This document shows, in pieces, positions 3,149 through 38,267 of a stretch of DNA of 38,600 nt (positions within the stretch are counted from its first letter, which is position 1; every line of letters starts with the position of its first letter). The position numbers were made by a program, and so were the translations under genes. Source of the DNA: an uncultured Propionibacteriaceae bacterium (lineage in GTDB: Bacteria; Actinomycetota; Actinomycetes; Propionibacteriales; Propionibacteriaceae); assembly GCA_964448385.1 (NCBI GenBank), contig CAYUWV010000002.1, forward strand, positions 1-38,600, in the 5' to 3' direction. Below the pieces are notes generated by a model. The model saw only the letters and a list, made by a program, of their open reading frames with translations. It did not search any database and was not told the DNA's origin.

Positions 3149-3167
3149 CGGGATGTTTTGCCTTGTC

Positions 3168-7050: not shown

Positions 7051-7085
7051 GCCCTTGCCCGACACCACCACACCACCCCTACCCG

Positions 7086-8029: not shown

Positions 8030-8036
8030 GCAGGTG

Positions 8037-8059: not shown

Positions 8060-8076
8060 CTTGCGCTCGCGGAACC

Positions 8077-13401: not shown

Positions 13402-13404
13402 CCG

Positions 13405-18900: not shown

Positions 18901-19047
18901 TTCGGACGTTGGGGCTACACGGAAATCACGGACATCACGTACGCCCGCGAGCGACTCCGCGAGGCGATAGGCGCCTTGTACGGCGACGACGTGATCATTG
19001 GCGATCCAGACCTGCTCGACTACAACGAGGTGAACCGTGGCGCGTAG
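15943..19047 (+). CDS. res: Type III-like restriction subunit (SF2 helicase plus C-terminal PD-(D/E)xK-like nuclease; BPTD_3080-like)
   Basis: GGAGG RBS. Motifs MATGTGKT, DEAHH, LSATP, MLTEGWDA, EQVVGRGLRR, and C-terminal YVKNDHLGF.IPY...YVPDF...VEVSG. Confidence 0.9.
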   Translation: MTDVSEVTDALASPVLNGPFDPPSRHFEIGHKGPTGMVQEGRRPSESYIPVPVPKKRGKQGVLQDALDFDLTHERVEKNTLINDLRRAVEQWRLRDYKGATPTSRRLLMYWAEPTRENRVMFCQREAAETAIFLAEVAGRQTFTADWRERVDAANAEHNAGLPRVALKMATGTGKTVVMAMLIAWQTLNKVASPGDKRFAKRFLIVTPGITIRDRLRVLDPSEPGNYYKLRDLVPADLEGQLRQAQLIITNYHAFLPRDTKEIKNVALNTRKLLLAGKHDDPFKETDAAMVSRVLRGWGVGSGKQQAEIVVFSDEAHHCYADKPQSVVEVDGEAADKEAEEANKEARVWFKGLQAVAKYVGVKTIYDLSATPYYLRGSGYHEGFIFPWTISDFSLMDAIESGIVKVPRIPVDDDAINDQVTYLNLWEYVGPKLPKRGLANTDVTDWLIPPELQGALDSLYRSYSRSFDYWQKHLEALDEPPPVMIVVCPNTAVSRLVFDWIAGAEVERKDGSGLLVPGNLPLLSNVDGEHFLDRPRTILVDSAQLDSGETLKDDFKKAAESEIEAFKSDFRRRNPGADVDAITDEDILREVMNTVGKKGLLGEPVRCVVSVSMLTEGWDANTVTHILGVRAFRSQLLCEQVVGRGLRRRSYAINDDGKYDAEYASVYGVPFAFIPSDKPLPEPKPSPPATEVRSVPGREELRITFPKVESYRLEIPDEDLRLDIEHAAHYRVGPSTVPTWTMNSPVVGEVELIEDESGPMRAQAVAFRLARRLLKHQYIIGSDERPWLFPRLVGICRQWIDNCVDLEPGFDIGTLVRYAEFETSAAEAIYNAIGDQPMDRRERMRVILRRFDPVGHTGDVSFVTRKPVLTTRLSEVSHVVLDGPGGNTWEERVAGLCEEGWLPEVAAYVKNDHLGFTIPYVYKGKTHDYVPDFLLRLKRREGEEFDRTLIVEVSGGMKSAHSPGSVQTKANTARNSWCAGVNNHGGFGRWGYTEITDITYARERLREAIGALYGDDVIIGDPDLLDYNEVNRGA

Positions 19048-21767: not shown

Positions 21768-21789
21768 TGTCAGCGTTGGCCAATAGAGT
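21768..21789 (+). promoter_or_regulatory. PafBC/RecA-NDp-type DNA-damage promoter motif (leaderless) for sir2-herA
   Basis: TGTCAG-CGTTGGCCAA-TAGAGT matches TGTCRG-N10-TAnnnT. The ATG follows 7 nt later. Confidence 0.65.
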
Positions 21790-21796
21790 GCGAGCC

Positions 21797-23041
21797 ATGT
21801 CAACCGCCCCGGCCGCGGGCTCGACGTCGAGTCCCACACAACGCTTGATTCTTGGCTCCCTTCGCAAGGACGGGGCAGCTGACCTCGCTGACCAGGACAC
21901 CGTCCAGGCGTTCCTGGCTGCCGTGCTCCAGAGCGAACATCTGAACCTCCTCGTCGGGAACGGCCTGACGACCGCACTGACCCTCGCAGCCGGTGTCAAG
22001 CCCCCAACGATGTCGGGGGTGGTCTCCACAGGTGAGAGTGATCTAGACGATGCGCTCGAAGCTCAGGCTCTGCGGTCAGCAACCGCGAGTGGTCGGGGGG
22101 CGGGCAACGTCGAGGACCGGCTACGTGTGGCGCTTGCGTCGGTACCAGGGCTCAGACTGAGCGATGCCGCCCTTGGGCAGAAACTGGCGGAAGCGATCGA
22201 CGCATCCCTAGCTCAGCTACACCAGAGCATCGTGGAAGCCGAAAAGGCGATTGCCGCATCTGCCGCAGCTCGCCGGCTGGTCACGCTGTTCCTGCGCTCC
22301 TTCGCCGGACGCGTCCCGACCAGGGACCGCCTCCACGTCTTCACCACCAATTACGACCGGGCCGTTGAGTGGGGAGCCGAGCAGGCGGGCCTGCGGGTTC
22401 TTGACCGGTTTGTAGGGACGCTCAGTCCGATCTTCCGCTCGTCCAGACTGGAGACTGACTATCACTACTCACCGCCCGGAACGGTGCGGGAACCTCGTCA
22501 TCTTGACGGGGTGGTCCGCCTGACGAAGCTCCACGGCTCCCTTGACTGGCGGTGGTCTGGCGAAGACGTGCTGCGTGCGCCTTCCCCGCTGGGCGAGGCA
22601 AGCGCCAAGGATCCGTCGGAGGTCCTGATCTATCCAAATGCCGCCAAGGATCGGGAGACGTCCGACTACCCGTACGCCGACCTGTTCCGCGACTACTCGG
22701 CCGCGTTGTGCCGGCCGAATGCTTCGCTGGTCACGTACGGCTACGGTTTCGGCGACGACCACATCAATCGTGTGGTCCGGGACATGCTGACAATCCCAAG
22801 CACTCACGTGGTGGTGATTTCCTACGACGACCAGACCGGCCTTGTCGAGAAGTTCCTTGCGGATCACGAGCCTTCAGGTCAGGTCAGTCTGCTGTTGGGC
22901 CCCGGCTATTCAGATCTGAAGGCTCTTGTTGAGTCTTGGCTTCCTTGGCCCGCTTCTGATGCGCTCGCACGTGCGCAGGTCGAGAACCTGCGGGCAACTG
23001 CCCCACCGGCAGCACCGACGAGTTCGGGGTCGGCGCCGTGA
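21797..23041 (+). CDS. SIR2-like (SIR2_2) NADase of a Sir2-HerA defence system
   Basis: LNLLVGNG, FTTNYD, KLHGSLDW, IYP, YGYGFGDDHIN. GTGA overlap with HerA. Confidence 0.9.
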   Translation: MSTAPAAGSTSSPTQRLILGSLRKDGAADLADQDTVQAFLAAVLQSEHLNLLVGNGLTTALTLAAGVKPPTMSGVVSTGESDLDDALEAQALRSATASGRGAGNVEDRLRVALASVPGLRLSDAALGQKLAEAIDASLAQLHQSIVEAEKAIAASAAARRLVTLFLRSFAGRVPTRDRLHVFTTNYDRAVEWGAEQAGLRVLDRFVGTLSPIFRSSRLETDYHYSPPGTVREPRHLDGVVRLTKLHGSLDWRWSGEDVLRAPSPLGEASAKDPSEVLIYPNAAKDRETSDYPYADLFRDYSAALCRPNASLVTYGYGFGDDHINRVVRDMLTIPSTHVVVISYDDQTGLVEKFLADHEPSGQVSLLLGPGYSDLKALVESWLPWPASDALARAQVENLRATAPPAAPTSSGSAP

Positions 23042-25260
23042 TTGCTCGCGCATGGGAGGACGATGCGCGCATCGTCGGTCAGGTGGTTGAGGTCGGCCCG
23101 TCGGTTCTGACGGTCCTGATCAACCGAGAGGCGCCCCATGGGACGGCATTCGCTCCGGACAGCCTCAGCCAGTTTCCTCGGATCAACGGGATCGTCGTCG
23201 TGCCGACCGAGATGGGAGCAGTTCTCGCTCTGGTCGTGTGGGTGGGCGTGAGCGATGATCCGACTCGCTTCAAAGACCTGACGGACCACGTCGGGCTCCC
23301 GACGCCAAGGCGGGTCCTGAAGGCGATGCCGCTGGGCCTCGTGCGTCGAGTTCTCGGCAAGGACGGTTCGCTGAAGACCCAGCTCGACCGCGGGGTGCTT
23401 TCGTTCCCGACGGTCGGCGACCCTGTCAGGCTGCCAACGGCTGACGAATCCGCGAGCGCCGTTCCAGCGGCCACCGGGTCCGACGCCATTCCCCTTGGCG
23501 TCGCCCCGCTCGCTGGCAACACCGCAGTGACTGTGAGCGGGGCGAGACTGTTCGGGCGGCACCTTGCCGTTCTCGGAAACACTGGGAGCGGAAAGTCCTG
23601 CTCCGTCACGCACCTCGTCCGCGCTGGCGCACGTACCGTGAACCCGGAGTACGGCACCTACCGGGCCGTGGTGCTGGACCTCAACGGCGAGTATGGACAT
23701 GCCTTCGATGGGCTGCCGGTCTCGATCGCGGTGACGCGCCTCTCTGTCGGCCCGGCGCAGTCCTACCCTGGCTCGACTCAACTGAGAGTGCCGTTCTGGT
23801 TGTGGAACTACCGTGAGTGGGCCGCCTTCTGCGACGCGAGCGGCAAGAGCCAGGCGCCAGTTCTTCGACAGGCGTTGCACCTCCTGCGCTCCAGTTCAAG
23901 TCGCATCGTGCCTCGTGCGGCTGTCCAGATCATTGCTGCGAGGCGTGTGCTTCTGGCGTCGCGCGTCGGAACAGACGCCACTGTCCTCAAGCAGCTGCTG
24001 TTCGTCCTCGACAACGCCCGTGAAGCGTGCAAGGCGCTCGATCCTGCGGTCAACGCCGCCGTCGCCACGCTCGAGTCCAGCCTGGGCCGGATCCTTGGTG
24101 CGCGGCTGAACCCGCCGGGGAGCCAGTACGCGTTCAAATTCGACGTTCGTCCGCTCTCGCCTGCTGAGGAGCAGGAGATTCTCCTCGCCATGAGCGACTC
24201 GCTTCGCGAGCTGAGTATCCCGGTCGGTGAGGGCGACACCTCAAGCGTTGACACCCCAACTCCATTCGATGCGCGCGACCTTGTCGAGATTATGAACCCC
24301 ATCGCTGCGGGGATGAGTGGCGGTGATGTTCAGGGCTGGATTGCCCCAATGCAGGACCGGCTCTCGATTGCCATGAACGACGCTCGGCTGACTGATGTCT
24401 GTGGGTTCCTGCCAGGTGAGAGCCTGGAAGGCTGGCTCGCGGCCATCATGGGCCCATCGGCCTCAAGTCAGATCACAGTCATCGACCTCAGCCTGATTCC
24501 AGCGAACGCCCAGCACGTGATCGCGAGCGTGCTCGGACGGCTGATCCTTGAGGCACATGAACGACACCGTCGTGCGACTAGGCGGAATGCGCCGCCAACG
24601 ATTCTTGTCGTCGAGGAGGCACACAGTCTTGTCCGACGACGGGGAGAGTCGGGGGTGGATGAGGCTGGAGTGCAAATGGCGGAGCTGTGTCGGGAGACCT
24701 ATGAACGGATTGCACGTGAGGGTCGTAAGTTCGGGCTCTCGCTGGTCGTATCGTCACAAAGGCCGAGCGAGTTGTCTGAGACGCTGCTGTCTCAGTGCAA
24801 CAGCTTCTTGGTGCATCGACTCGTGAACCCGAGAGACCAGGACGCAGTGAAGCGCATGGTTCCAGACTCGGTCGGGGCACTCCTCAGTGAGGTGTCATCG
24901 CTGCCAGCGCAGGTTGCCATCTGCATAGGTGCCGCCTCGCCGATTCCCACCTTGGTGCGGATGGAGACCGTGCCACCGGAGTACAGGCCAGACTCGAGCG
25001 ACCCAGAGTACGTCGCCGCTTGGGCGTCCGGCATGGAGCTGGACATCCCGGCCCTTGTGGCCGGCTGGGTGGTGCCACCTGCCCTCGGACAGTCGAGTGC
25101 CTCGGTCAGTCCGCCGAGTCCCGGTTGGGATGAAGCGGTGGAGACGTCCGATGACTACGAGCCCGACCCGGAGGAAATGTATGCGGAAGTGCGCGACGAG
25201 TATGAGCCTGACGATGACGAGGAGCGGTGGGGACCCGATCCTGAGCGTCCGCCGTTCTAG
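23038..25260 (+). CDS. herA: HerA-family ATPase (DUF87) of the Sir2-HerA system
   Basis: N-terminal HAS-barrel-like region, Walker A GNTGSGKS, DLNGEY, Walker B VVEEAH, REGRKFG, SQRPSE. Acidic tail. Confidence 0.92.
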   Translation: MIARAWEDDARIVGQVVEVGPSVLTVLINREAPHGTAFAPDSLSQFPRINGIVVVPTEMGAVLALVVWVGVSDDPTRFKDLTDHVGLPTPRRVLKAMPLGLVRRVLGKDGSLKTQLDRGVLSFPTVGDPVRLPTADESASAVPAATGSDAIPLGVAPLAGNTAVTVSGARLFGRHLAVLGNTGSGKSCSVTHLVRAGARTVNPEYGTYRAVVLDLNGEYGHAFDGLPVSIAVTRLSVGPAQSYPGSTQLRVPFWLWNYREWAAFCDASGKSQAPVLRQALHLLRSSSSRIVPRAAVQIIAARRVLLASRVGTDATVLKQLLFVLDNAREACKALDPAVNAAVATLESSLGRILGARLNPPGSQYAFKFDVRPLSPAEEQEILLAMSDSLRELSIPVGEGDTSSVDTPTPFDARDLVEIMNPIAAGMSGGDVQGWIAPMQDRLSIAMNDARLTDVCGFLPGESLEGWLAAIMGPSASSQITVIDLSLIPANAQHVIASVLGRLILEAHERHRRATRRNAPPTILVVEEAHSLVRRRGESGVDEAGVQMAELCRETYERIAREGRKFGLSLVVSSQRPSELSETLLSQCNSFLVHRLVNPRDQDAVKRMVPDSVGALLSEVSSLPAQVAICIGAASPIPTLVRMETVPPEYRPDSSDPEYVAAWASGMELDIPALVAGWVVPPALGQSSASVSPPSPGWDEAVETSDDYEPDPEEMYAEVRDEYEPDDDEERWGPDPERPPF

Positions 25261-25317
25261 CGGCGCTCCTACGGCAAACTGCCAACGGCAGTCCGCGCCT
25301 GAGTGAAGGATGCTGTC

Positions 25318-28125
25318 ATGCCCTTGTACACGGAGGCCCAACGGCTCGCGATCGATAGCGTCGATAGGCACCTTCAGATCATTGCGTGCGCCGGGTCGGG
25401 CAAGACGCAGGTCATCTCCCAGCGGATTGCCGGGATCCTCGGTCAAGAGGGCGTCACCCCGGCAAACGTCATCGCGTTCACATTCACCGAACGGGCGGCC
25501 GCCGAGCTGAAGGACCGAGTGTTGTCAATCCTCGAGGACGAGGGCTTGGGGACGCTCGGCCTGGCCGAGATGTTCGTGGGCACGATGCACGGCTATGCGC
25601 TTGATCTGCTGCAGCGGCTGGTTCCGGAGACCTTCAAGTTCTCCGTTCTCACCGAGATCACATCGCGGCTGCTGGTGGATCGCAACTCGGTTAAGTCGGG
25701 TCTCACGGTGTGCCCCACCAACTCACGCGGCACCCCGCATCTTCGCCGATTCCTGCACTCGAAGCTCTTCCTCCAGGCGATGAGCGTGCTGCGGGAAGAC
25801 ACCGTCAACCTGAACGCTGTGCCGGACGGGGTCATCGCCTCGTTCCGGAGCTACATGAAGCTCATCTACGGCCACGCATCCTTCGACTTCACCGAGATGA
25901 TCAACCTAGCGGTGCAGCTCCTCGAGGCCGATCCAGATGAGGATCCCGCCGCCGGCGTCGTGCAGGAACACATCCGCGAGTCCATCAGGTACGTCGTTGT
26001 GGACGAGTACCAGGACGTGAACCCGCTGCAGGAGAGGCTGATCCGAGGGCTCACGAGGTTCGGCGCGAACCTCTGCGTTGTCGGGGATGACGACCAGACC
26101 ATCTACCAGTGGCGCGGCAGCGAGGTGACCAACATCCTCACTTTCACCGACCGCTACGAGGGCGTCCGTTCCGTCACCCTCGACGACAATTTCCGCTCCA
26201 GCGAAGGCGTCGTTGAGGTTGGGCGCTCGGTTGCGGAGCGGATCCCCGCAACCCATAGGCTGCCCAAGACGATGGTTCGTGCAGGGCATCAGACGTGGGA
26301 GCGTGGCGACCTGATCGCGTCTGACTTCGTAGACGCAGACTCGGAGGCCGTGTGGATCTGCGACCGGGTCGAGGCCATGCGTGGGCTGGCCTTCCGAGAC
26401 ACCCCTGACGGTGATCCTCGTGGGCTTTCGTACTCCGACTTCGCGGTCCTGTACCGGTCGGTTGCTCATGATGCCGGCCCGCTCGTCGACGAACTCCGTC
26501 GGCGCGAGATCCCATACATCGTCAAGGGGCTCAATCGGCTCTTCGACAGCCCAGAGATCCAGGCCGTCGTCGGTGTCTTCCGCTACATGGCATCACTGAT
26601 CGACGGGACGACGCTTCACCAGCTGTGGCAGGCCGCGGACCTCCTGCCAACCGGTGGCGACTGGCCTGCTGCGATGGCGGTGCTGGTCGAGGGCCGGGAC
26701 TTCACGCGAGGGAAGCGGTGGGGTGTGTACAACATCCAGCGCCTCTACCTGGAGTTCCTCGAGGCGCTTGGCTTCCGCGAGGAAACAGTCCCGGGGGACC
26801 CGGTTCGCGCCGAACTCGTGTTCTACCAACTCGGCAAGTTCAGCCAGGCAGTCTCCGACTTCGAGCAGATCTACTTCAACACCGACCCCGCACAGAAGTA
26901 CGACGCCTTCGCGAAGTGGCTGGACTATCAGGCGCCCGACTACTACGCAGAATCCGATGCCGACGTCGGGTACGCGACGCCTGACGCGGTTGTCCTTGCC
27001 ACCGTGCACCAAGCCAAAGGAATGCAGTGGCCGGCAGTCTTCCTTCCGTGCCTGCGCCGAAACAGGTTCCCGTCCAAGCGCCAGGGCGGCCTGGGGTTGT
27101 TCCATGTCATCCCAGACACAGCTATCGCTGACCCCGACCGGTACCGCGGAACCGAGGAGGACGAGACGCGGCTCTTCTACGTGGCCGTGACGCGAGCCCA
27201 GAAGTACCTGTTCGTCTCCTTCTCGCCAGGGGAGAACAACCTCTATGCCAACCGCTCAGTGTTCTTCGACCACTGCACCCGCCAGCAATGGTTCTCCACC
27301 CGCGACCTCGGCGTGGCGGCCGATGCCCCTCGGCTGGAACCCCGAGCACGCCATGAGACCCCGAACGTCACACTGTCATTCTCGGAGCTGAAGTACCTGT
27401 TCGAGTGCCCGTACGAGTTCAAGCTGCGGTTCCTGTACGGCTTCAACCCGCCCATCCACGAGGCGCTCGGCTTCGGCAAAGGTCTCCACGATGCACTGTC
27501 CGAGGTGCACAAGCGGGCCATCGCAGGCGACATCCTGGCCGCAGACGCTGCGGCAGAACTCGTGGGCCGCCACCTCTACACGCCGTTCGCGTACCCGGAA
27601 CTCCGGGACACGCTTCAGAAGGCTGCGATCAAGTCGGTAGAGAGATATCTGACCGAGCACGCAGACGACCTGGAACAGACGGTGCACAGCGAGAAGCAGA
27701 TCCAGGTGCACATCGCCCCCGGCATCACGGTCGACGGCCGAATCGACCTCGTTCGGCGTCTCGACACCAACGAGCTGTCGATTGTCGACTTCAAGTCCAC
27801 CGCTCGCGCTCAAGCCGAGGAAGTGACGCGCGACCAGCTGCACGTGTACGCGGTCGGGTACGAAGAGCTGACGGGCGAGCGCGCAGACCTCGTTGAGGTG
27901 CTGAACCTGGACGAAGAGGGCAAGACGATCCGCGAGGAAGTTGAGGAGTCGCTCCTGGACGGAGTGCGGGCGCGGATTCGTGACGCAGGCGATGCGCTGC
28001 GGTCGAACGATCTCCCGCGACACGCATCATGGTGCGCCGCGTGCGACAAGTGCGACCTCGCCGAACTGTGTCGGGTTGTTCCGGACGAAGCGCGGAAGGC
28101 TCGGAGGGCGTCCGTCGGCCGGTAG
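25318..28125 (+). CDS. UvrD/Rep SF1 helicase fused to PD-(D/E)xK (AddB/Cas4-like) nuclease
   Basis: Helicase motifs ACAGSGKT, VDEYQD, VGDDDQTIYQWRG, NFRS, TVHQAKG and RLFYVAVTRA. Nuclease region SFSEL..CPYEF...GRIDLV...IVDFKS...QLHVY with terminal CxxCxxCxxxxxC. Confidence 0.92.
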   Translation: MPLYTEAQRLAIDSVDRHLQIIACAGSGKTQVISQRIAGILGQEGVTPANVIAFTFTERAAAELKDRVLSILEDEGLGTLGLAEMFVGTMHGYALDLLQRLVPETFKFSVLTEITSRLLVDRNSVKSGLTVCPTNSRGTPHLRRFLHSKLFLQAMSVLREDTVNLNAVPDGVIASFRSYMKLIYGHASFDFTEMINLAVQLLEADPDEDPAAGVVQEHIRESIRYVVVDEYQDVNPLQERLIRGLTRFGANLCVVGDDDQTIYQWRGSEVTNILTFTDRYEGVRSVTLDDNFRSSEGVVEVGRSVAERIPATHRLPKTMVRAGHQTWERGDLIASDFVDADSEAVWICDRVEAMRGLAFRDTPDGDPRGLSYSDFAVLYRSVAHDAGPLVDELRRREIPYIVKGLNRLFDSPEIQAVVGVFRYMASLIDGTTLHQLWQAADLLPTGGDWPAAMAVLVEGRDFTRGKRWGVYNIQRLYLEFLEALGFREETVPGDPVRAELVFYQLGKFSQAVSDFEQIYFNTDPAQKYDAFAKWLDYQAPDYYAESDADVGYATPDAVVLATVHQAKGMQWPAVFLPCLRRNRFPSKRQGGLGLFHVIPDTAIADPDRYRGTEEDETRLFYVAVTRAQKYLFVSFSPGENNLYANRSVFFDHCTRQQWFSTRDLGVAADAPRLEPRARHETPNVTLSFSELKYLFECPYEFKLRFLYGFNPPIHEALGFGKGLHDALSEVHKRAIAGDILAADAAAELVGRHLYTPFAYPELRDTLQKAAIKSVERYLTEHADDLEQTVHSEKQIQVHIAPGITVDGRIDLVRRLDTNELSIVDFKSTARAQAEEVTRDQLHVYAVGYEELTGERADLVEVLNLDEEGKTIREEVEESLLDGVRARIRDAGDALRSNDLPRHASWCAACDKCDLAELCRVVPDEARKARRASVGR

Positions 28126-28138: not shown

Positions 28139-31100
28139 CTACGCTTCGGCGAGACCCTCAACCGCGACCTGCGCCCAGCCCTTGTCGAAGCTGAAGTGGC
28201 TGGCCTGCGCGATCGGATCGTGGATTCGGATGATTCGCGCATCCGGCTCGCCCGCTCGCTCGACGATGTACAGCCAGAACTGAGTGCCGTACTTCTGGGC
28301 AGCTTCGAACTGCGTACTCGAGATCGCGGCTGGTCGCTCGTCGAAGGAGACCCGTAGGGCTTTCACCTCGACCACCCGCAGCAGGTTCCCGGCTCGGTCG
28401 CGCTCTTCAAGGTCGTATCCTGGATTCCCAGGCGGCATCCGCACGAGGTCTGGCTCCTGACTCAGTATCAGGTCAATCGCAGCGTCCTCAAGGGCCATTC
28501 GCTCTTCGTATGTGGCGGAATCAGCGTCAGCATCGACGTCGTCATGCCACACCCCAACGAAGGAGTGGAACGCCGTGCGTGTTCCGCGGGCTCGGTTGCG
28601 CTGTTCGCGCCTTCCTCCCGATCCACCGCCAACCGGGGTTGAGGAGTGCTCGTGTCCGACGGGCTCCATGGTGGCCTCGCCCTCGGTGTCCCAATGGAGC
28701 AGGTCGCGCGTGCCAAGACTGGTTGATGAGCTGGCTTCCGAGGAGTCCACGTCAGAGTCACCGTCGCTGTTGCTCTCATCCCCGTCCTGATCGCCAGCCG
28801 TCGTGGGGTCTGGCTGGATGGGCTCAACTGGCGCTGCGTCGGCCTCGGCGAGTTCCGTCTCGGGCTCGTCCGGAAGGAGCTGCCTGAGGTCGTCAAGGGT
28901 TCGGATCCCCCGGAGCTTGAGTAGGTCGAGCATCTCGGGCTCGAAGCCTGCCTGTACGGCGAGTTCGTCGATGATGGGCGGCTTGAACCGGATCTTGCTC
29001 TGCAGGAACGGGTGTTCCCGCCAGCCGGTCGCCTCGAACTCCACCGAGTCTGGAACGTGCAGTCCTCCGTCGGAGAACACCCAGAGCCTGTCAGTGAGCT
29101 GTCCGAGGAACCGCGGGGCGAAGTCTGTGGAGTAGTTGCCGTAGTAGCTCCACCTGTAGGTTGCGCTGAACACGCCTTGACTGCGGTTGTGCTCCAGGTC
29201 TCGGAGCGCCTCCCACAGCAGCGCCGAGCGTTCGCTCTGTTCCTCGACGTCCAGGGTCGGAAGAAGGTCCAGAAGGCCGTCAAGACCAGCGATGTCCCAG
29301 TCGACAACAACATCCTTCGCAGTTGACGATCTTGGCATTCCGCTGAGATCACTTAGGGCCGACATCTCGTCTCGCGAGAGCATGTTCCGCCGCTCAATGG
29401 GGCGGAGATAGTCCAGCGCTCCCGCCTCCCGGACGATTTTGCGAACCTCTTCGCCGGCGAGTGCCTCGATCGAGTCGTCGAGAACGAGGACGTTGGTGAC
29501 ACCGGCGAGCAAGGTGCGAATTCGCTGAGTCGGCAGATACACCTGACCCGGTTGGGCGAAGTAGTTCTTGTCGGTGCCGAGATCGATTGCTCTGACGAAG
29601 TACGAAGTACCCAGAGCCTCAATTAGCCTCGCGCGCCGGGACGTCGAGTCAGATGAGGCGGCGTGGCAGATCCGCCGCAGGTCCTCCTCGTAGTCAGTGG
29701 CGTCGATGGCCCTAGGTCGGTACTTGGGCAGGACGTGGCGGATCACGTCTTCGACGGGATCCGGCTCGGTGAGGCCCAGCTTCTCTTGGACGAAGCGCCG
29801 GGAAGCTTCCGTGAGCACGACTTCGCGCTTCACAAGTGGGAACCCTGTGATCGTGGAGTCATCTCCTAGTAGGTAGGCGGCCGGCTCGCCGTTGATGACC
29901 GCCGGCACCTGGCTGCCGTCGGCCAGCCGAACCAGGGGTCGCGATTCGAGGCGAGTCCGCCCGAGCGAGAGTCCGACTAGGAACTCATACAGCGCCCGCA
30001 CCCAGTCGTCGTCCTGCTCCTCGAGGAACTCACGCGTGAGGCGAGGGATGAGGAACTCCGGGGTCAGGGCGCGAACATCCGCGGCTCTGGTCAAGTAGTT
30101 GTAGAGGTCCGCCGTTCGGTCTTCCGTAATGCCTTCGCTGAGCCACGCGGACTCGCTTCCCAGCAGCTGGGAGAGCTGGTCTCGGCTGAGCAGCGCTCGG
30201 AGGTCACGCGTGCCGATGACCGCTCCTTCTGCCGCAACAAAGCCTCCGTCGTATGTGGGTAGGAGGGGCTCGGATCGGATCGCGTCGAGTACCGCCTGGT
30301 ACAACGGCGCGAAGAGCCTGCCTCCCTCGCCCTCGTAGGCATCCGAGCGGATGGGCAAGCACTGAAGCACGGCAGGCGTCAGTCTTCCTGCGTCTCGGAG
30401 CCAACGCAGGGCATCGACGATGACGGTGGCCGTTTGGGCGACGAGTGCGTGGTTCCACGGGTCGGCGCGCTTCACGTTGTCCCGGCTCGGGGTGGTCTCG
30501 TAGGGACCCTGAATCGCCACACCGCAGTGCGTGTCGACGGCCGTGGGGAAGAAGACGGACAGCCTGGACTGCGACCGCTGGCGGATCTGCCAATCGGCTG
30601 CGCGATCTGACCTGTCGACAGCGAACGCGACCTCGACAAAGAGCTCCTTCTCGGATCCTCCAGCACGCCGGCGGAATAGCAGCCATTCCTCGTCGGTGTC
30701 ACCGGGCCGTTCGGAGTCCTGCCCGATGATGGTGACGATTGACGCGAAGTCGTCGAGATGGTCCTCGTCTCGAAGGAAGTCGCCAGAGTGTGTGCCGCCG
30801 GCATCCCAGCTGATCTCTTTGATTCGGCGGAGGAACAGCAACGCGGACGATCCCAAGTCCTTGAGTGCCGCAAGGATCTCGTCGCCTGCCCCCGGAACGT
30901 CGGATCGGAAGGGCAGGCAAATCGAGGTCTCGCGGGGCGCGAGCGCTGCCGGCTCGCATGCGTGGGGGAGTACGTAATCCTCGATGGCAAAGGCCTCGTC
31001 GCCCGAACGGATCTCCGGTCTCTCCGTGTAGGCGTACACGGACTTGAACCCAATCCCAAACTTGCCGATCTCCTGGGAGTCCTTAGTCGACTGGCCGATG

Positions 31101-31369
31101 CCGCAGACACCGCGGACGTCAAGCTCCGTGAACTCAACGCCGAAATGCCGGACATCGAGGCTCGTAGGCTCCAAGTTGAACCGAACACTGGCCTGAGGGG
31201 GGTTGTCCTCGCGGCGCGTATAGGCATCCTCCGCGTTCTGAAGGAGTTCGAACAGGAAATGCGTGCGGTCGTCGTACCGGTCGCGGAGGAGCATGTCGCC
31301 ATACACCCCGACATCCGTGCCGTATCGGCGAAGGTTGTCGACGCGTATCGCCTCGTAGTCCGACGTCAT
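28139..31369 (-). CDS. GHKL/sacsin-like ATPase with C-terminal DUF3883 (NOV-type) nuclease domain
   Basis: GGAGG RBS. ELLQNAEDA, IGQSTK and IGKFGIGFKSVY (GHKL). C-terminal GYDLE...VEVKA...ISSTQFEAA...FWLYIVE. Acidic linker before the last domain. Confidence 0.85.
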   Translation of the reverse strand: MTSDYEAIRVDNLRRYGTDVGVYGDMLLRDRYDDRTHFLFELLQNAEDAYTRREDNPPQASVRFNLEPTSLDVRHFGVEFTELDVRGVCGIGQSTKDSQEIGKFGIGFKSVYAYTERPEIRSGDEAFAIEDYVLPHACEPAALAPRETSICLPFRSDVPGAGDEILAALKDLGSSALLFLRRIKEISWDAGGTHSGDFLRDEDHLDDFASIVTIIGQDSERPGDTDEEWLLFRRRAGGSEKELFVEVAFAVDRSDRAADWQIRQRSQSRLSVFFPTAVDTHCGVAIQGPYETTPSRDNVKRADPWNHALVAQTATVIVDALRWLRDAGRLTPAVLQCLPIRSDAYEGEGGRLFAPLYQAVLDAIRSEPLLPTYDGGFVAAEGAVIGTRDLRALLSRDQLSQLLGSESAWLSEGITEDRTADLYNYLTRAADVRALTPEFLIPRLTREFLEEQDDDWVRALYEFLVGLSLGRTRLESRPLVRLADGSQVPAVINGEPAAYLLGDDSTITGFPLVKREVVLTEASRRFVQEKLGLTEPDPVEDVIRHVLPKYRPRAIDATDYEEDLRRICHAASSDSTSRRARLIEALGTSYFVRAIDLGTDKNYFAQPGQVYLPTQRIRTLLAGVTNVLVLDDSIEALAGEEVRKIVREAGALDYLRPIERRNMLSRDEMSALSDLSGMPRSSTAKDVVVDWDIAGLDGLLDLLPTLDVEEQSERSALLWEALRDLEHNRSQGVFSATYRWSYYGNYSTDFAPRFLGQLTDRLWVFSDGGLHVPDSVEFEATGWREHPFLQSKIRFKPPIIDELAVQAGFEPEMLDLLKLRGIRTLDDLRQLLPDEPETELAEADAAPVEPIQPDPTTAGDQDGDESNSDGDSDVDSSEASSSTSLGTRDLLHWDTEGEATMEPVGHEHSSTPVGGGSGGRREQRNRARGTRTAFHSFVGVWHDDVDADADSATYEERMALEDAAIDLILSQEPDLVRMPPGNPGYDLEERDRAGNLLRVVEVKALRVSFDERPAAISSTQFEAAQKYGTQFWLYIVERAGEPDARIIRIHDPIAQASHFSFDKGWAQVAVEGLAEA

Positions 31370-31410
31370 GGCTGCTCCTCCGTTGAGCACCTTCTGCTGT
31401 GGATGTGACG

Positions 31411-32550
31411 CTAGTCCGACACCGCGTCCGGGGGTGTGGGTTGGGTCTGGATGACCCTGCCAACTCCCTCGCAGTCAGACTCGGCAAGGGTCGTGAGGAT
31501 CAGCTCCGTTACTTGGCGGCGCTTCTTCTGGGATGAGGCCGAGTGCTGGAGGCCGACTCGACGCCGAATGATGTCACGTGCCGGCCCACCCTGGGCCATG
31601 CTGCTCGCAGTCGGCTTGTTGGCCATCTCGGCGTAGAGGGTCTCGCTGCTCAGGAGAGCGGGGTGATCGTCGTAGGAGAGGATCCACCGGAGTGACGTTC
31701 CCGTGGCAAGGTAGGCCGCGAGTTCCTCGTGCTCGGTAAGGCCCTCCCACCGGTCGGGGTTGTCAAAGCGTTTCGAGAACCCCGTCTTGTACAGGCGAGC
31801 TGACTTCTCGACGTACGGCGGATCCAGGTACACGATCGCTTGATCCATTTCGAGCTGGCCGGAGGTCGCTCGAAACGAATCCTGCCACCGTGCATGGCGA
31901 GGGGTTGCGAGCTTGCCTGTGCTGTGGAGGTGAGCGACCCACAGAATCCGGTGGGCAAGGGAATCCGGGTTGAACCGGCAGCCGATCTTGTACTCAGACG
32001 TCTGTGCGCGTCCTCCGATCGGGCCGGCGTTGCCATGAAGGATCCCGGAGAAAGTCGTGCGATTGAGGAAGAGGCACTTCATCGCCCGCTGGCGCTGAAC
32101 AGTGGCGACGTCGTCGCCGGGTGACGGTTCCCAGGCGTGCCAATAGTCCCATCGGTCGACGGCAGTCTGCCCACCACCCGCCACATACGTGCCGACCTCG
32201 TCGTTCATCGCCTCGATGAGTCCGGCGGGGTTCGTAGCAGCCTCTATCCAGAACGACGCAACCAGGGGGTCGCCGTCGGCAATCATCGCGTGGTCGACCA
32301 CTCCGTCAGTCAGAAGCCGGAGTGTGGTCGCAGCGCCGCCGGCGAACGGCTCGACGAGGGTGAGCGGTCGTTTCAGGCGTCCGCCATCAATGGCGCTCGC
32401 GATCATGCGGGCGATCATCGGCGTGAGCTTGGCCTTGGCCCCCGGGTACCGAAGTGGCGACAGATACCGCACGGGTGCCGTCGGATCCAGGGTGACCAGC
32501 GACAGCTGCGGAACGGACTCACGAGTGACCTCGTGCGCTGTGTTCAGCAC
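31411..32550 (-). CDS. Dam-family (D12/alpha class) DNA adenine methyltransferase
   Basis: SPLRYPGAK, LVEPFAGGAA, FLNRTTFSG, GPIGG...YKIGCRFN, YLDPPY, WILSYDD. Confidence 0.9.
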   Translation of the reverse strand: MLNTAHEVTRESVPQLSLVTLDPTAPVRYLSPLRYPGAKAKLTPMIARMIASAIDGGRLKRPLTLVEPFAGGAATTLRLLTDGVVDHAMIADGDPLVASFWIEAATNPAGLIEAMNDEVGTYVAGGGQTAVDRWDYWHAWEPSPGDDVATVQRQRAMKCLFLNRTTFSGILHGNAGPIGGRAQTSEYKIGCRFNPDSLAHRILWVAHLHSTGKLATPRHARWQDSFRATSGQLEMDQAIVYLDPPYVEKSARLYKTGFSKRFDNPDRWEGLTEHEELAAYLATGTSLRWILSYDDHPALLSSETLYAEMANKPTASSMAQGGPARDIIRRRVGLQHSASSQKKRRQVTELILTTLAESDCEGVGRVIQTQPTPPDAVSD

Positions 32551-32556
32551 GCTGGC

Positions 32557-33936
32557 TTACCTCTCTCTGTGCTCCTGGGAAAGCCCTAGCCTTTCGCGCG
32601 CCACCAAGCGCAGGACATCGGTGCCAACACCAATGGGGAAGGCTGCGCGACCGTGCGCGGCCGCCACCGGAATGATCCCATCCAGATACATGGAGGAGCC
32701 AGTCCGGTCGATCACATCGAGGATCGCAGGAAGCGTCGGATATCCCTCAGGCCCCGGCTGGCCCCCATTGGAGTCGTATGCGGTCCCTGTGACTGGAGGC
32801 ACGGTGATCACGACTACGCGACCATCCTTGCTGCGGTACATGAACTTTCGTCCCCAGTAGGTCTCCTTGCCGAAGTTCGTAGGGTCCTGGGTGCCCACAA
32901 GGCGCTTGAGGACCTCCTCACCGCAGACAACAAGTTCGCCGGGTTGAACGAGGTCGTGCTTGGCGAGCTGGCGCGCGTAGTCGACAAACGTGCCTGACTT
33001 CTCGACCCCACAGATGTACGGCCCGGTGCCGGGCGTCTGGGTGGTCATCGAGCGGAAGAAGAACTCGGCTCGGGCGCGGAGCTTGGCGGGCTCGCCGTAC
33101 ATCGCGAGAGGGCCATCCTGGATGAACAGGACGCGCGGCAGCAGCGCGGTGCGCGACTGCTCCCACAGGAGCGTGGTCAGACCGACGAGAACCAGTAGCT
33201 CGATCACGGACCGGAGGCGGCCCAGCGAGGTCTCGTTGGTTCCGTCCTCCTGGACTCCTTCGTGGATGCGCAGGGTGTCGGTGGGGAATAGGTCAGTGCC
33301 GCAGAGCGGGCAGGCGGTCCCGTCGAACTCAACCTCGACGCCTTCCACGCGGCACCCGGGGCAGTTGACAGGGACGGACCTCGCAGGGGACGTTGGCGCG
33401 CCATGGAGCCGGAAGAGCAGGCTCATCAGGGTCTGCTCGAAGCCGTTCACAGCGACCTTCTTCTTGCGGAAGATCTGATCCATCAGAACGCGCCAGGACA
33501 TCTTGATGTCGATGCCATCACTCGCGTATGCGCCGGCGACAGGCATGTCGATCGTGACAAGTTCGGCGTTGACGGCCTGTTCGATGGCAATTGGGTCAAC
33601 GAACCGCTCTGCGCGCTGGGTGGACATGACTGCCAAGTCGACGTAGGCAGCCGCAGCCTGGGCGAAGCCGTACAGCACGGTGGGCATCCCGTCGCGCACC
33701 TGCTGGGTGACGTGCGAACCGTCCACCGCGATCGCCGCGTCGAGAACGGCCGCTGCGTTCGCACCAGGGAGTGACGACCTGGAAACGACCACATCGCGCA
33801 CCCAGTCCGCGTCGCTCAGCGCATCCGCCGGGACGAAGAACTCCGCGCGGTCCGCCATGGCCTGGATGGCGGCCGCGCTGTGGCCGAGCCTCGAGGCCCG
33901 TTCGAAGCTCTGGCCGTTGAACGATTGGTACGGCAT
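32557..33936 (-). CDS. nurA: NurA-family nuclease with CxxC...CxxC insertion
   Basis: AIAVDGS, FIQDGPL, GVEKSG and C-terminal PVAAAH match the NurA/RNase H-fold pattern. TGATG coupling to the upstream HerA. Confidence 0.8.
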   Translation of the reverse strand: MPYQSFNGQSFERASRLGHSAAAIQAMADRAEFFVPADALSDADWVRDVVVSRSSLPGANAAAVLDAAIAVDGSHVTQQVRDGMPTVLYGFAQAAAAYVDLAVMSTQRAERFVDPIAIEQAVNAELVTIDMPVAGAYASDGIDIKMSWRVLMDQIFRKKKVAVNGFEQTLMSLLFRLHGAPTSPARSVPVNCPGCRVEGVEVEFDGTACPLCGTDLFPTDTLRIHEGVQEDGTNETSLGRLRSVIELLVLVGLTTLLWEQSRTALLPRVLFIQDGPLAMYGEPAKLRARAEFFFRSMTTQTPGTGPYICGVEKSGTFVDYARQLAKHDLVQPGELVVCGEEVLKRLVGTQDPTNFGKETYWGRKFMYRSKDGRVVVITVPPVTGTAYDSNGGQPGPEGYPTLPAILDVIDRTGSSMYLDGIIPVAAAHGRAAFPIGVGTDVLRLVARERLGLSQEHRER

Positions 33937-35978
33937 CAGCCGACCCCACGGTCTCCGGCAGCCAAGCGGGCCTCGTCGATGAGCGATGGGCCGTACTTCT
34001 CGATCTGAACCGGCACGATGAACGGCGACGACAACGTCTTGAGGCGGACGAAGCCGCGATCCTCGGAGGTCAGAATCGCGTCCGCGAATGAGCCGAAGTC
34101 GTAGAACTTGCCGAGCTCGTTCAGTTCCTGACGGTTGTTGAGGTGCGAAACGACCCAGTTGGCCGTGTTCGCCTTCACCTGATGGGCGACGCCGGTGACC
34201 TCCTGAGTGGCGTAGATCATGCCGATCTTGAGCTTCGCGGCCTCCTTGGCAAGTCGGACCCACACATCTGCATCGTCGTTGTACCGCTTGGTCGTGAACA
34301 GATTGTGGGCCTCCTCCAGCATCACCTGGATCGCTGGCGGCTCCTCTCCGGAAGTGAACACATCCGTCTGACGCTTCAGGAGGTGCACGGTGATCGTCTC
34401 GGAGAGAGTCTGGACCACCTTCTCGTTGCCGATGTGCAGGTCGACGATCACGACGCGACCAGCAACGAGTTCGTTGTAGATGTCCTGAGCAACATCGCTT
34501 CCGACGTCTGGGTCGTGGAACGCACGGAGTGGGATCAAGTTGCGGAAGCCCCGCACGCGGCCGCCTGCCGTCGATTGACCCGTTGCCATCGGGGCGGCGG
34601 ACTGCCACCGGATGTCCTCTCCGAAGTGCTTGGCATCCGGGTCGTCCTTGCTTCGCATGGCCTCTATGGCATCCACAACCGCGGTGATGCGGCTCGCCGG
34701 AATGGACACATACCCTGGCCCGGCGGCAGCCAATGGATCCGACTTGAGGTGCTCGGCCACCTTCACTGCGAAGGCTTCCTTCATGCTGACCCGTGCGGCA
34801 AAGTTCGCCGGAGCCCGGAAGCCGGCCTTCAGCAGCGCTGCGTACAGAGCCAGGCGTCCGCGTGTGGCGTGGTTGGATCCGCTGTACTCGCCGCGGTGGT
34901 CCGAGAAGTCGGTCGAAGCGAAGTCGGACACATATCCGGATGCGCCCTCCGCGCCGAGGTGATCTGCAATGAGTCCTTGAACGGTGCCGATCTGGTCGAT
35001 ATCAAAGAAGTTCACGGCGAGCGGGCGGACGTGGGACATGGAACCGTCCGCACCGAACTTGAAGATCCGTACGTGTTCCTCGCCGAGTGCGGCGATCGCG
35101 CTCTTGTCCTGGACGTTGTCGTTGGCATACTCGCCCTGGGGGTCAAAGATCAGCTGGCCGATGGGCCCCTTTTCGGCCTTCAGCCGGCGCTGCGACGCGA
35201 TGAAGGTCCGGGCGATGATGATCTTCGCCGTGTTCGACTTGCCCGTACGGGTCATGCCCAGCAACGCAGTCTTGTGGCCGATGAAGTCCTGAATGCGCAC
35301 CGTGACGTTCGAGTTGCTCTGATTCGCCGCTTCTGCGCGGCGTCGCGTGGCGGAGTACCGGACTGCCCCGATCGTGACCAGATCACTCACTTCCCCATCG
35401 GGTCGCAGGTAGCTCGCGATCTCAGAGAGCCCTTCGCCGATCGGCTTGAGTACTCGGTAGGTGCTCGTCGCGTAGAAGTTGTCGACGTCGGGCTCGAAGA
35501 TGAGCTGCCGGGTTCCGTCGACAGCCGACTCGTAGAAGGTGCCAAGGACCTTGCAGCGCAAACCCGTGAACGATGCCCTGTTCTTGGTGAAGGGATCCAT
35601 CTCGTAGTCGAGTACCACTGACGGCGAGGCGTTCTCCGTGCGGCTAAGCGCGGTTCGCAAGGCTTCTTCTCGCACAGCGTGCAGGTCGCTCTCGAGCGCG
35701 AGCGGCGCAGTTCCCTCGACCCGCAGCAGGAGCACCTCGTCGTCGTCACCAGGGTTGTTCGCGTCATGTGCCGTTGCGATGAGGAACGAGTACTGCGGGA
35801 TCCCGCCGGCGTCGAACTTCCACTTGTCGTGCGTCAGCACGATGGCCTCGTGGTAGTCGATTCTCTGGACTGCTCCGACACGGATCGCTCGACCGTCCGC
35901 GAGCAGCATCGTCTGCAGCAGCGCGCCCACACCCACACCTGGCAGGAAGTTCACTGTTTCCCCTTGAGTTGTCGACAC
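33936..35978 (-). CDS. herA: HerA-family ATPase (DUF87), partner of NurA (start may be GTG at 35954)
   Basis: Walker A GMTRTGKS, FDPQGEY, Walker B MLEEAH, YATQE. HAS-barrel-like N-terminus. Confidence 0.85.
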   Translation of the reverse strand: MSTTQGETVNFLPGVGVGALLQTMLLADGRAIRVGAVQRIDYHEAIVLTHDKWKFDAGGIPQYSFLIATAHDANNPGDDDEVLLLRVEGTAPLALESDLHAVREEALRTALSRTENASPSVVLDYEMDPFTKNRASFTGLRCKVLGTFYESAVDGTRQLIFEPDVDNFYATSTYRVLKPIGEGLSEIASYLRPDGEVSDLVTIGAVRYSATRRRAEAANQSNSNVTVRIQDFIGHKTALLGMTRTGKSNTAKIIIARTFIASQRRLKAEKGPIGQLIFDPQGEYANDNVQDKSAIAALGEEHVRIFKFGADGSMSHVRPLAVNFFDIDQIGTVQGLIADHLGAEGASGYVSDFASTDFSDHRGEYSGSNHATRGRLALYAALLKAGFRAPANFAARVSMKEAFAVKVAEHLKSDPLAAAGPGYVSIPASRITAVVDAIEAMRSKDDPDAKHFGEDIRWQSAAPMATGQSTAGGRVRGFRNLIPLRAFHDPDVGSDVAQDIYNELVAGRVVIVDLHIGNEKVVQTLSETITVHLLKRQTDVFTSGEEPPAIQVMLEEAHNLFTTKRYNDDADVWVRLAKEAAKLKIGMIYATQEVTGVAHQVKANTANWVVSHLNNRQELNELGKFYDFGSFADAILTSEDRGFVRLKTLSSPFIVPVQIEKYGPSLIDEARLAAGDRGVG

Positions 35979-36170: not shown

Positions 36171-36293
36171 CTAGCTGGAGGCCATCTCAGACAACCTGCG
36201 CGCGATCTCCGCGTCCCGCCCGGCGGCGGCGTGTTGATAGATCAGGGCGGCCTTGACGTCGGAGTGGCCGAGCCGGTTCATCAGTTCGGCCAC
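36171..36293 (-). pseudogene. C-terminal remnant of a phage-type tyrosine integrase
   Basis: Manual translation gives VAELMNRLGHSDVKAALIYQHAAAGRDAEIARRLSEMASS*, the LGH...Y(QH) end of integrase box II. Not in the ORF track. Confidence 0.8.
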
Positions 36294-37062
36294 AACCTGT
36301 CCTGAGGCCGGCCAGCCATGCGTCAAGAAGCTCGTCGTGGCCGCCTCGCCAAGCTAGCCGCACGGTGGGCTGGATCCTCGTCGCGACGTCGAGGACCCGC
36401 CCTGCGCGGTCACTCGTGAAGCAAGCCATGCCTCGACGGCCGAGTCGATTGGAGCCGGCCAGCTCGTGGTCGTAGCCGGTGGTCGCCATGGCGAGCTCGT
36501 CGTCCCAGGTCTCGTCGCCGTAGATGCCCTCCGAGGCAGCGCGCAGCACCGTGAGGAGATCGTCGGCGTCCTTCGTTTCGGCGGGCTGACGTCCCGCGAA
36601 GGCGATGAGCTTCAGCACGGCGATGAGTTCGAGGGGAGCGACGGGCAGCAGTCTTCCGGACGGCAGCGTGGCGAAATCCGCGTTGGCGGCTGCTTCAGCG
36701 CAGCCAAGGACGCTGAGGCTGGACTCATGGATAACGACTTCGCCTTCGTGCTCGAGGTCGCCGAAGGGCACCACGTCGACCTGCTGCCCGAGCAGCCTCC
36801 TGCGCTGCCAGGCTCGAGTCGGTTCGCCAATGGTCGCCAGCAGCGCGTCGAAGTCGCCAGCGTCGTGGGCGGCCACTGCGATGTCGACGTCGTTGGTTGC
36901 TCGTCGGGGGAGCGTGACTCCTCCGAGGATGAGTGCAAGGTCGCGGGCGGTGGCGCCGATGAGTACCCACGGCCCGGGAGGCCCGAGAGTGTCGACGAGG
37001 GCATCCAGCAGCTCGCCGGGAACGGGCAGGTCGCGCTCAGCCAAGGGTGCGAAGGTGCGCAT
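36187..37062 (-). CDS. AbiEii-like nucleotidyltransferase toxin (type IV TA); C-terminus reads through into the integrase relic
   Basis: GGAGG RBS. VLIGATARD, RRATNDVDIAV, VDVVPFG, LKLIAF...KDADDL. Confidence 0.82.
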   Translation of the reverse strand: MRTFAPLAERDLPVPGELLDALVDTLGPPGPWVLIGATARDLALILGGVTLPRRATNDVDIAVAAHDAGDFDALLATIGEPTRAWQRRRLLGQQVDVVPFGDLEHEGEVVIHESSLSVLGCAEAAANADFATLPSGRLLPVAPLELIAVLKLIAFAGRQPAETKDADDLLTVLRAASEGIYGDETWDDELAMATTGYDHELAGSNRLGRRGMACFTSDRAGRVLDVATRIQPTVRLAWRGGHDELLDAWLAGLRTGCGRTDEPARPLRRQGRPDLSTRRRRAGRGDRAQVV

Positions 37063-38062
37063 CGTTCCTCCTGATGTTGGCGGCGATATCAAGAGAGCGG
37101 GCGTCGCCCTCGCGTAGCAGGTCCCCGTAGATCAGGACTGATGGCACCAGGCCCGGTTGCGGCGTGGGCAGTCCGTCTCCCCAGAAGCGCTCACGCACCT
37201 CGACGCGGAACGGAGTGGGGTCGGTCGTCAGGCGCAGCAGAGTCACGGCGGAGCCAAGAGTCGCCGCGTAGACGATGCCGTCCGTGGCGCGAACCTGGTC
37301 GTCCAGCACCGCCGCCGCGGCGATTCCGCCGAGGAAGACCTCGCCCCGGCTTTGACCGCGAACCTTGTCCGGCCATCCAACTTCTGCGGCGTACAGCGGT
37401 CGGGGCGCTAGTGGACGCACGGCCAGCCGTCGATAGGTGTCTGCCCATGCGTCGAGCAGCCGGCCCGGGCGGGAGAGTCGCCTGTCCAGTAGGAGCCCGG
37501 CATCGGTGAGTTGGGCAAGGGTGCTGTGGACGGTGCCGATCGAGGCCCTTGCGGCCGAGGCCAATGAGCGCACCGAGCTGGCCGCCAGTTCCGGGTTGGC
37601 CAAGAGCGCGAACACCACCCGGTGGCTGGCTCGGTTGAGCGCCAGGGCACCCGGGGCTCGCTTCGCCTGCGTTTGCCGGCCCGCCAACTTGGCGTGTGTT
37701 CCCGTGGGGGCGGGTCTGTCGACGTCAGCGAACAGCACTGTGCGCCCGTCCAGAGACAGATGGGCATTGCCGCGCTCGTCCATGAAGCTGGCGTCTGCGT
37801 CGGCGAGGCGGGGGACTGTGGCGTCGTCGAAGCCGCTACTCACTAGCAAGGGCAGCCATCCGGGGTCTTCGTTGGGCGTCTTCGGGCTGCGGCCGACGGG
37901 GACGACCCGAACTCGATGCAGCGCCGTGCCATGGCGTAGAACGAGCCGTCGGCCACCGGAAGGCTGCACAGACAAGACGGTGACGTCCTTCATCCCTGCG
38001 CGCACCAGACCCTGTTGAACGAGGCGCGCCAACGCTTCACCCTGAGCGTTCAAAAGACTCAT
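37037..38062 (-). CDS. AbiEi-like antitoxin / transcriptional regulator (type IV TA)
   Basis: FMDERGNAHL, HTH SVRSLASAARASIGTVHSTLAQL, LLDAWADTY, RERFW, LIYGDLL..GDAR. Overlaps the toxin by 26 bp. Confidence 0.82.
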   Translation of the reverse strand: MSLLNAQGEALARLVQQGLVRAGMKDVTVLSVQPSGGRRLVLRHGTALHRVRVVPVGRSPKTPNEDPGWLPLLVSSGFDDATVPRLADADASFMDERGNAHLSLDGRTVLFADVDRPAPTGTHAKLAGRQTQAKRAPGALALNRASHRVVFALLANPELAASSVRSLASAARASIGTVHSTLAQLTDAGLLLDRRLSRPGRLLDAWADTYRRLAVRPLAPRPLYAAEVGWPDKVRGQSRGEVFLGGIAAAAVLDDQVRATDGIVYAATLGSAVTLLRLTTDPTPFRVEVRERFWGDGLPTPQPGLVPSVLIYGDLLREGDARSLDIAANIRRNDAHLRTLG

Positions 38063-38099
38063 TCGTTCAATATAGCTGAACGCCACCGTTTCTTGAACG
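38047..38099 (-). promoter_or_regulatory. Leaderless abiE promoter with overlapping CGTTCA/TGAACG operator half-sites
   Basis: The minus strand reads TTCAAG-N17-TATATT-N6-ATG. Half-sites are at 38047, 38064, 38077 and 38094; CGTTCA-N7-TGAACG spans the -10. Confidence 0.65.
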
Positions 38100-38110
38100 A
38101 GGACGCCCCC

Positions 38111-38267
38111 GAGAGGCCCGGTCGCATCGAGGTAGGCGTTCGTTATCTCGGTACGGAGCGCCTGGAAGATGTCGCTGCGTCCATCGCCGGCATCATCGTG
38201 AGGCTGAGCCAGCGCGTCGGGCGCGGTCCTGTCTTGGTTCTCCACGGTCTGCTCAACCCGCACCAGC
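38111..38267 (-). pseudogene. Internal fragment of a paralogue of the NYN-domain gene
   Basis: Ungapped similarity to 9384-9540 (offset 28727): HDDAGDGRSDIFQALRTEITNAYLDA versus HDDGGDGRSELFKAFRTEMTNAYLEA. Confidence 0.85.

Follow-up and report, generated by a model that had tools for sequence, protein, structure and literature searches.

The locus at 28139–35978 of the window, by which is meant the whole 38,600-nucleotide stretch analysed (contig CAYUWV010000002.1 of assembly GCA_964448385.1, from an uncultured Propionibacteriaceae bacterium), raises the question of whether its four neighbouring genes work as one defence system or as a smaller system with an independent neighbour. The four minus-strand open reading frames (ORFs) encode a HerA-type motor, a NurA-type nuclease, a DNA methylase and a GHKL ATPase joined to a NOV_C (= DUF3883) domain; all are co-oriented and intact, and their junctions consist of a 1-bp overlap, a 6-bp gap and a 41-bp gap, as an earlier reading of the letters alone, here called the original prediction, had described. 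That prediction proposed a four-gene restriction-modification (R-M)-like system in which the methylase marks self DNA, the GHKL–DUF3883 protein cuts unmarked DNA and HerA–NurA degrades it from the break. The R-M-like character survives in the best present reading, to which sequence comparison lends a probability of roughly two-thirds (0.66): HerA, NurA and the methylase would form a three-gene R-M-like defence cassette, and the neighbouring gene, a Tiamat homologue, would be separate and no obligate first cutter. This reading is built on the gene identities, intact motifs, co-occurrence, methylase exchange and homology to TdpA and TdpB, each established below.

Core gene 1 (33936–35978, minus strand) encodes a 680-residue HerA-family ATPase/translocase; translation more probably begins at residue 9, where a GTG follows AAGGGG. 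The protein matches PF01935 (E 2e-11) and retains intact Walker A (GMTRTGKS at 241) and Walker B (LEEAH at 554) motifs. Its best sequence match in the Protein Data Bank (PDB) is TdpA, with E 4e-14 for the single sequence and 2e-27 for the profile. The predicted model (pLDDT 85) likewise aligns best with TdpA (Z 30.0, rmsd 5.5, 533 residues aligned), other HerAs reaching Z 22–28 and the next best, 8xau, 28.1.

Core gene 2 (32557–33936, minus strand), whose start overlaps the HerA stop by 1 bp (TGATG), encodes a 459-residue TdpB-like nuclease of the NurA fold with a Zn-ribbon insert. A Pfam search of this protein returns no match, and PF09376 is matched weakly by 15 of the 37 members of the NurA alignment (best E 7e-4). 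The motifs comprise DGS (D72), CPGC/CPLC (192–212), DG (D274), GxEK and AxH, so that the two DG motifs and the C-terminal AH named as NurA hallmarks in the available text of PMC13748450 are both present. The Zn-ribbon cysteines C192, C195, C209 and C212 are invariant in all 37 close rows, and the four positions are Cys in 98, 97, 99 and 78% of 116 near-full-length family representatives. In sequence searches the family profile reaches a single NurA-family chain, that of TdpB (E 5e-7). In addition, the model (pLDDT 76) retrieves TdpB with Foldseek (E 1e-6) and aligns best with it (Z 16.5, rmsd 5.2, 303 residues), ahead of the next NurA, from Sulfolobus (Z 12.8). The family comprises 647 NurA clusters at 50% identity. 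No PADLOC or NCBIfam family model covers the window NurA, and current libraries thus miss the cassette; the earlier remark that the four-gene combination was not recognised as a named system holds to this extent, and the fourth gene by itself matches the named Tiamat.

Core gene 3 (31411–32550, minus strand) follows NurA after the 6-bp gap and encodes a 379-residue alpha-type amino-methyltransferase of the D12 / PD-lambda-5B / M.CbeI group, with matches to PF02086 (E 3e-11) and PADLOC PD-Lambda-5_B (E 2.5e-49) and with the motifs LRYPG, EPFAGG, LNRTTFSG and DPPY intact. Its profile finds PDB entry 7M6B (E 2e-18) ahead of DpnM (2e-7) and EcoDam (2e-3), and its score against TIGR00571 is 50.5 bits, under the cut-off of 114.85; the Dam-family assignment made earlier, which would imply N6-methyladenine (m6A) at GATC, is accordingly doubtful. 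By its entry name, 7M6B is presumably M.CbeI. The start of its chain agrees with a cloning primer in PMC3425538, in whose available text M.CbeI is annotated D12 and has DPPY yet writes N4-methylcytosine (m4C) in GGCC, and SPPY is an m4C hallmark. Because the window methylase lies nearer to this m4C enzyme than to Dam, its mark is possibly not m6A, and m4C may be at least as likely, judging from sequence. M.CbeI, the nearest solved relative, and the other alpha-class m4C methylase DmtB share with the window enzyme, as does PD-lambda-5B, the D12 annotation, DPPY and a similar recognition-loop layout, whereas the loop sequence of M.CbeI and DmtB differs, so that a GGCC site is not to be assumed. 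At one other locus, the module's D12 methylase, itself of the PD-lambda-5B family, is followed two genes on by a PD-lambda-5A gene (L028:13870–15399; E 8e-182); a PD-lambda-5 system and the cassette may share or exchange the methylase there.

The linkage of the three genes was assessed over 137 NurA loci, comprising 47 from a genome scan, 80 kept of 370 from metagenomes, three from viral contigs, five from plasmids and two from relatives, after removal of the entries for the window locus itself (L056, L142) and of four duplicate loci (L053, L054, L055, L140). Hidden Markov models (HMMs) for HerA and two methylase classes were built from the loci, Pfam-checked on representatives and run over six frames. 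A methylase is part of the module in 127 of the 130 loci with room for one, the remaining seven ending too soon: 45/45 in genomes, 75/75 in metagenomes, 3/3 on viral contigs, 2/2 in relatives and 2/5 on plasmids. HerA lies directly upstream of NurA in 123/137; of the 14 exceptions, 13 break off within 200 bp and the last, L131, has no HerA match in about 700 bp. No further neighbour is conserved across the 47 genome and 80 metagenome loci. The recurrence on which the original prediction had wished to be checked thus holds for HerA, NurA and methylase (127/130) and fails for GHKL–DUF3883 (0/137). The available part of a 2026 NurA review describes bacterial nurA as lacking stable synteny.

The methylase slot is refilled rather than lost. 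Within the actinobacterial set, 42 of 45 loci carry a long D12 gene and three a shorter, convergent D12 gene, while a distant metagenome clade carries in all 75 cases an unrelated PF01555 enzyme with FxGxG first and TSPPY after it; a PF01555 SPPY-type methylase also accompanies the pair on archaeal (Halorarius) and Deferribacter plasmids. On the latter plasmid (L052), an IS200/IS605 element splits herA and the methylase lies upstream. Methylase type changes six times on a 33-row NurA tree (minimum three), and the short convergent D12 genes are nested within the long-D12 clade on starred branches; a single clade for all D12-linked NurAs is not rejected (p-AU 0.056), and, because long branches meet in the tree, swaps at deep nodes carry less certainty than those nested within a clade. 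Within clades, HerA–NurA distances correlate with Mantel r of 0.93 and 0.82, against 0.49–0.60 for the methylase, correlations that shared descent alone could yield. The methylase probably works independently of the motor, given that its slot is occupied by unrelated enzymes, some of them encoded on the opposite strand.

The closest known system is TdpABC (TdpAB structures 8wet, 8wfd, 8y1k; An et al. 2025, Nat Chem Biol 21:1160), which likewise combines a HerA-type motor, a NurA-type nuclease and one self-modifying enzyme. TdpA and TdpB are the best matches of the window HerA and NurA by sequence and by fold, and an MPYxGE-like N-terminus is common to TdpB and the window NurA; TdpAB, rather than the archaeal end-resection machine to which the pair had originally been compared, is the fitting comparison. 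The differences are considerable. The third gene encodes an S-adenosylmethionine-dependent methylase (PF02086 or PF01555) instead of TdpC, the window NurA is about 85 residues longer than TdpB and carries the Zn ribbon, the window HerA is about 95 residues longer than TdpA, and identity to TdpAB is only 12–22% in the structural alignments. No TdpC phosphorothioation enzyme was found as modification gene among the loci, nor as another conserved neighbour, so the cassette is not a TdpABC member. The self mark of TdpABC is reportedly a phosphorothioate, which is reported to block DNA degradation by TdpAB. Tdp is characterized as a phosphorothioate-based R-M defence system with a single modification gene in the available text of PMC12914056 and PMC13223576. 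By analogy, the cassette likely works in the same manner: the methylase would mark a short site in host DNA; a HerA hexamer, with a NurA dimer as its cap, would be loaded onto DNA, thread it through the ring at the expense of ATP and break it down; the machine would, as proposed from TdpABC, halt or leave the DNA uncut wherever it meets the mark; and unmarked incoming phage or plasmid DNA would be destroyed. A further step is tentative, in that a HerA–NurA ring without a target-recognition domain of its own might read self as a chemical obstacle during translocation, so that any modification writer could be plugged in and methylase-less cyanobacterial copies would borrow the host methylome. 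The writers could then be the phosphorothioate enzyme in TdpABC and the D12/M.CbeI-type or SPPY-type enzymes here, both possibly writing m4C.

The fourth gene (28139–31369, minus strand) encodes a 1076-residue protein that starts from an ATG behind GGAGGAG, its own ribosome-binding site. It matches SACS (E 4e-13), NOV_C (E 7e-9) and PADLOC TmtA (E 1.5e-67), nine TmtA models matching in all, and displays the motifs ELLQNAEDA, GKFGIGFKS and GYDL..EVK. It is thus a Tiamat-type GHKL ATPase–PD-(D/E)XK protein: the Tiamat preprint, in the text available, curates the family by a GHKL ATPase and NOV_C/DUF3883 in one protein (10.64898/2026.09.30.754977), and both domains occur together here. For the central DUF3684 region there is no Pfam match at E 0.01; the TmtA models match residues 32–621 and 849–1078, and the protein is shorter than most of these models.

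Tiamat and the module largely occur apart. A Tiamat HMM at E 1e-4 matches none of the 137 other NurA loci, of which 71 extend 4.5 kb or more beyond NurA on the downstream side, and the module is found in none of 11 Tiamat loci, with an upstream flank of about 9 kb in five and about 1.5 kb or less in six. One draw of 300 genomes holds Tiamat in one genome and NurA in another, and 400 genomes from the phylum of G001 hold Tiamat-like genes in five and NurA in none. In the 98%-complete genome G018, the three genes alone match the window (83% nucleotide identity over 31460–35963) and no Tiamat match is found; in L036 the methylase is followed by a convergent UvrD gene with Tiamat absent; and a single contig of run X19, with 113 letters on its shorter side, runs from the end of the methylase into the UvrD gene, passing over the place where Tiamat would lie. 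The family HMM did not bear out a weak tblastn match to Tiamat in L036 (E 9e-5), and weak matches in G059, G735 and G758 are located away from the module, on other contigs or elsewhere. The Tiamat gene is likely a passenger, an antiphage gene in its own right that entered the island in this lineage, and the neighbourhood counts reject an obligate four-gene system.

Support for a role in defence comes from distribution and surroundings. The cassette is patchy (2 of 100 relatives, 1 of 300 genomes of the order, none of 400 sampled from the phylum of G001) and is found on plasmids, viral contigs and integrative elements, often beside integrases and IS elements. Among proteins flanking the module, 21 of 124 have a PADLOC match, compared with 2 of 111 control ORFs (Fisher p 9e-5), and counted by locus the ratio is 14/31 versus 2/18 control stretches (p 0.025). 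This test used two ORFs on each side of 31 genome loci at E 1e-15, with ORFs cut at 520 residues and with the near-copies L017, L019 and L043, the frameshifted L004 and short loci left out. The matches include type I, III and IV R-M, pPIWI-RE, Lamassu, Gabija-like, AbiE and PD-lambda-5A genes.

Several observations weigh against a three-gene defence cassette of this kind, and some of them bear on alternatives. The controls of the flank test are drawn from 18 stretches of only three genomes, and the searches favour two clades and return many near-copies that are not independent, so that the co-occurrence counts overstate independence. Three cyanobacterial plasmids (L049, L050, L051) carry HTH–HerA–NurA with no adjacent methylase, and their replicons hold no PF01555 or PF02086 match; such pairs may rely on methylation by the host or operate in another way. 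TdpA leads the other HerAs structurally by a narrow margin (Z 30 versus 28), and the Arg of the TdpA EGRK motif, which we take to be the arginine finger, is replaced by Ala, Ser or Gly in 103 of 103 HerA sequences (residues 578–582), so that the motor possibly differs from TdpA; R244 (in Walker A) and R645 are nonetheless invariant in the family. The four genes also occur in order within individual contigs of two runs, X6 and X14, and partly in X9, wastewater metagenomes from three studies that apparently carry one sister allele, with HerA and NurA about 95% identical and the methylase and Tiamat more diverged. Because these contigs keep all four genes in order, the array is stable in the window lineage; and because a contig of run X6 departs from the window sequence at 25302, Sir2-HerA is not beside UvrD in the sister allele. 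That repeated order, the co-orientation of Tiamat across a 41-bp gap free of terminator-like sites, and the description of Tiamat as nicking double-stranded DNA and often neighbouring helicases and methylases (10.64898/2026.09.30.754977, available text) are what would be expected if Tiamat, at least in this lineage, nicked unmarked DNA and so gave HerA–NurA or the UvrD-nuclease an entry point. Such a four-gene system is improbable, given the 0/137 count, the Tiamat-less X19 contig, L036 and G018, and the separate ribosome-binding site; the available main text of the same preprint does not mention HerA, NurA, DUF87 or D12.

The alternative with a direct precedent is DNA donation or mobilisation, in which HerA–NurA would process chromosomal DNA and pump it in the course of transfer, the methylase being an accessory. 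The Thermus thermophilus ICEth1 operon also places NurA, a HerA-like ATPase and an amino-methylase on an integrative element, as tth111II-nurA-tdtA-PF01555 methylase, and nurA and tdtA mutants lose transjugation (PMC5365140, available text). This gene set has been tied to donation, and loss of the methylase has only minor effects (PMC7767461, available text), which likewise counts against a defence role. The module, too, is located on integrative elements and plasmids. The ICEth1 operon, compared here by gene set, nevertheless differs in its nurA-tdtA order, its 377-residue NurA and its type IIG enzyme, and no type IIG restriction enzyme is a conserved fourth gene in the 47 genome and 80 metagenome loci; nor do the module's flanks hold a conserved gene for secretion or conjugation. 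Its neighbours are defence genes, and self-protection explains better than an accessory function why nearly every locus retains or replaces its methylase, so that donation appears unlikely. The patchy, mobile nuclease-plus-methylase logic, with integrases and IS elements often adjoining, would also suit a selfish addiction module that kills cells losing the methylase after segregation and defends only as a side effect. This is compatible with the three-gene R-M-like reading, yet defence is favoured by the cyanobacterial copies that lack a methylase and by the enrichment of defence genes around the module, and addiction as the main function is judged distinctly improbable. Housekeeping double-strand-break resection, as in archaea and Deinococcus, is very improbable: the cassette shares the ATPase family and the NurA fold with the repair complex, but it occurs in 2 of 100 relatives, with no core-genome presence, the mre11/rad50 linkage of the archaeal repair operon is absent among the conserved neighbours, the methylase partner is near-constant, and HerA scores lie far under the NCBIfam cut-offs for repair HerA. 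The antiphage pairs Sir2-HerA and HerA-DUF4297 share the ATPase family as well; unlike these and the end-resection complex, the cassette operon has no Sir2, DUF4297 or Mre11/Rad50 partner.

New here are the separability of the fourth gene as Tiamat, an actinobacterial clade with an M.CbeI-like rather than Dam-like methylase, and the repeated swapping of the methylase. No description of a methylase-linked HerA–NurA defence cassette was found in the literature, although An et al. 2025 and Iyer et al. 2004 may mention it; the available portions of PMC12977600, PMC7251087 and PMC3417536 contain nothing relevant to it. Should the three-gene R-M-like reading be correct, TdpAB-type translocase-nucleases would be a broad restriction platform rather than a thermophile oddity tied to sulfur, partnered by ordinary methylases in archaea and in bacteria including the actinomycetes; the means by which a ring motor distinguishes marked from unmarked DNA could be tested directly; the cassette could be an unrecognised transformation barrier in Streptomyces and relatives; and the Thermus ICEth1 operon would merit a defence-based re-reading. 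If the writers do prove pluggable, this would be a widespread R-M class with specificity set by the modification enzyme only.

The surrounding island bears out the predicted defence setting: it adjoins tRNA-Pro and holds an integrase, a type III R-M pair, Sir2-HerA, a UvrD–nuclease fusion and AbiE. The UvrD–PD-(D/E)XK fusion, identified by Pfam (25303–28125, plus strand), is convergent with Tiamat across a 13-bp gap. Of the 47 genome loci, six (L001, L005, L009, L033, L036, L045) carry close orthologues (55–76%) in the vicinity of the module, in varying positions and usually with type III R-M genes, and the fusion was rejected as a fourth part on these grounds; it is an optional recurrent neighbour and may be a roving defence helicase-nuclease. 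Its partners vary, comprising Sir2-HerA in the window, an OLD/GajA-like ATPase in L033, a Sir2 protein in L036 and Mod-Res in L001. The window Sir2-HerA (21776–25260, plus strand; PADLOC SIR2 E 5e-152, HerA E 1e-197) is a separate system of its own, situated between UvrD and a type III-like R-M pair in res-mod order (15850–21727, plus strand), which consists of a BPTD_3080 family endonuclease and an 896-residue Mod. Related type III-like pairs occur near the module in L033 and L045, and as fragments in L036. In three actinomycetes (L002, L003, L012), pPIWI-RE genes directly flank the cassette.

The operon genes have a GC content of 62–65%, compared with 68% for the genome, in keeping with a mobile cassette, and a promoter and terminator scan of the locus gave nothing above chance. 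On the other side of the cassette, an AbiEi/AbiEii type IV toxin-antitoxin pair occupies 36187–38263 (minus strand), and a second, partial AbiEi-like stretch lies at about 9381–9536 (minus strand; 56% over 52 residues). A short frame just upstream of herA (about 36171–36290, minus strand) overlaps the end of the AbiEii ORF and has no Pfam match; by its LGHS..IY pattern it presumably resembles the C-terminal end of a tyrosine recombinase. The left part of the island (3075–14667) contains the tRNA-Pro, a TrwC relaxase fragment, the integrase, an NYN-domain protein and an ArdC-like antirestriction protein. The 22-bp 3' end of the tRNA-Pro is repeated on contig C266, a possible att site.

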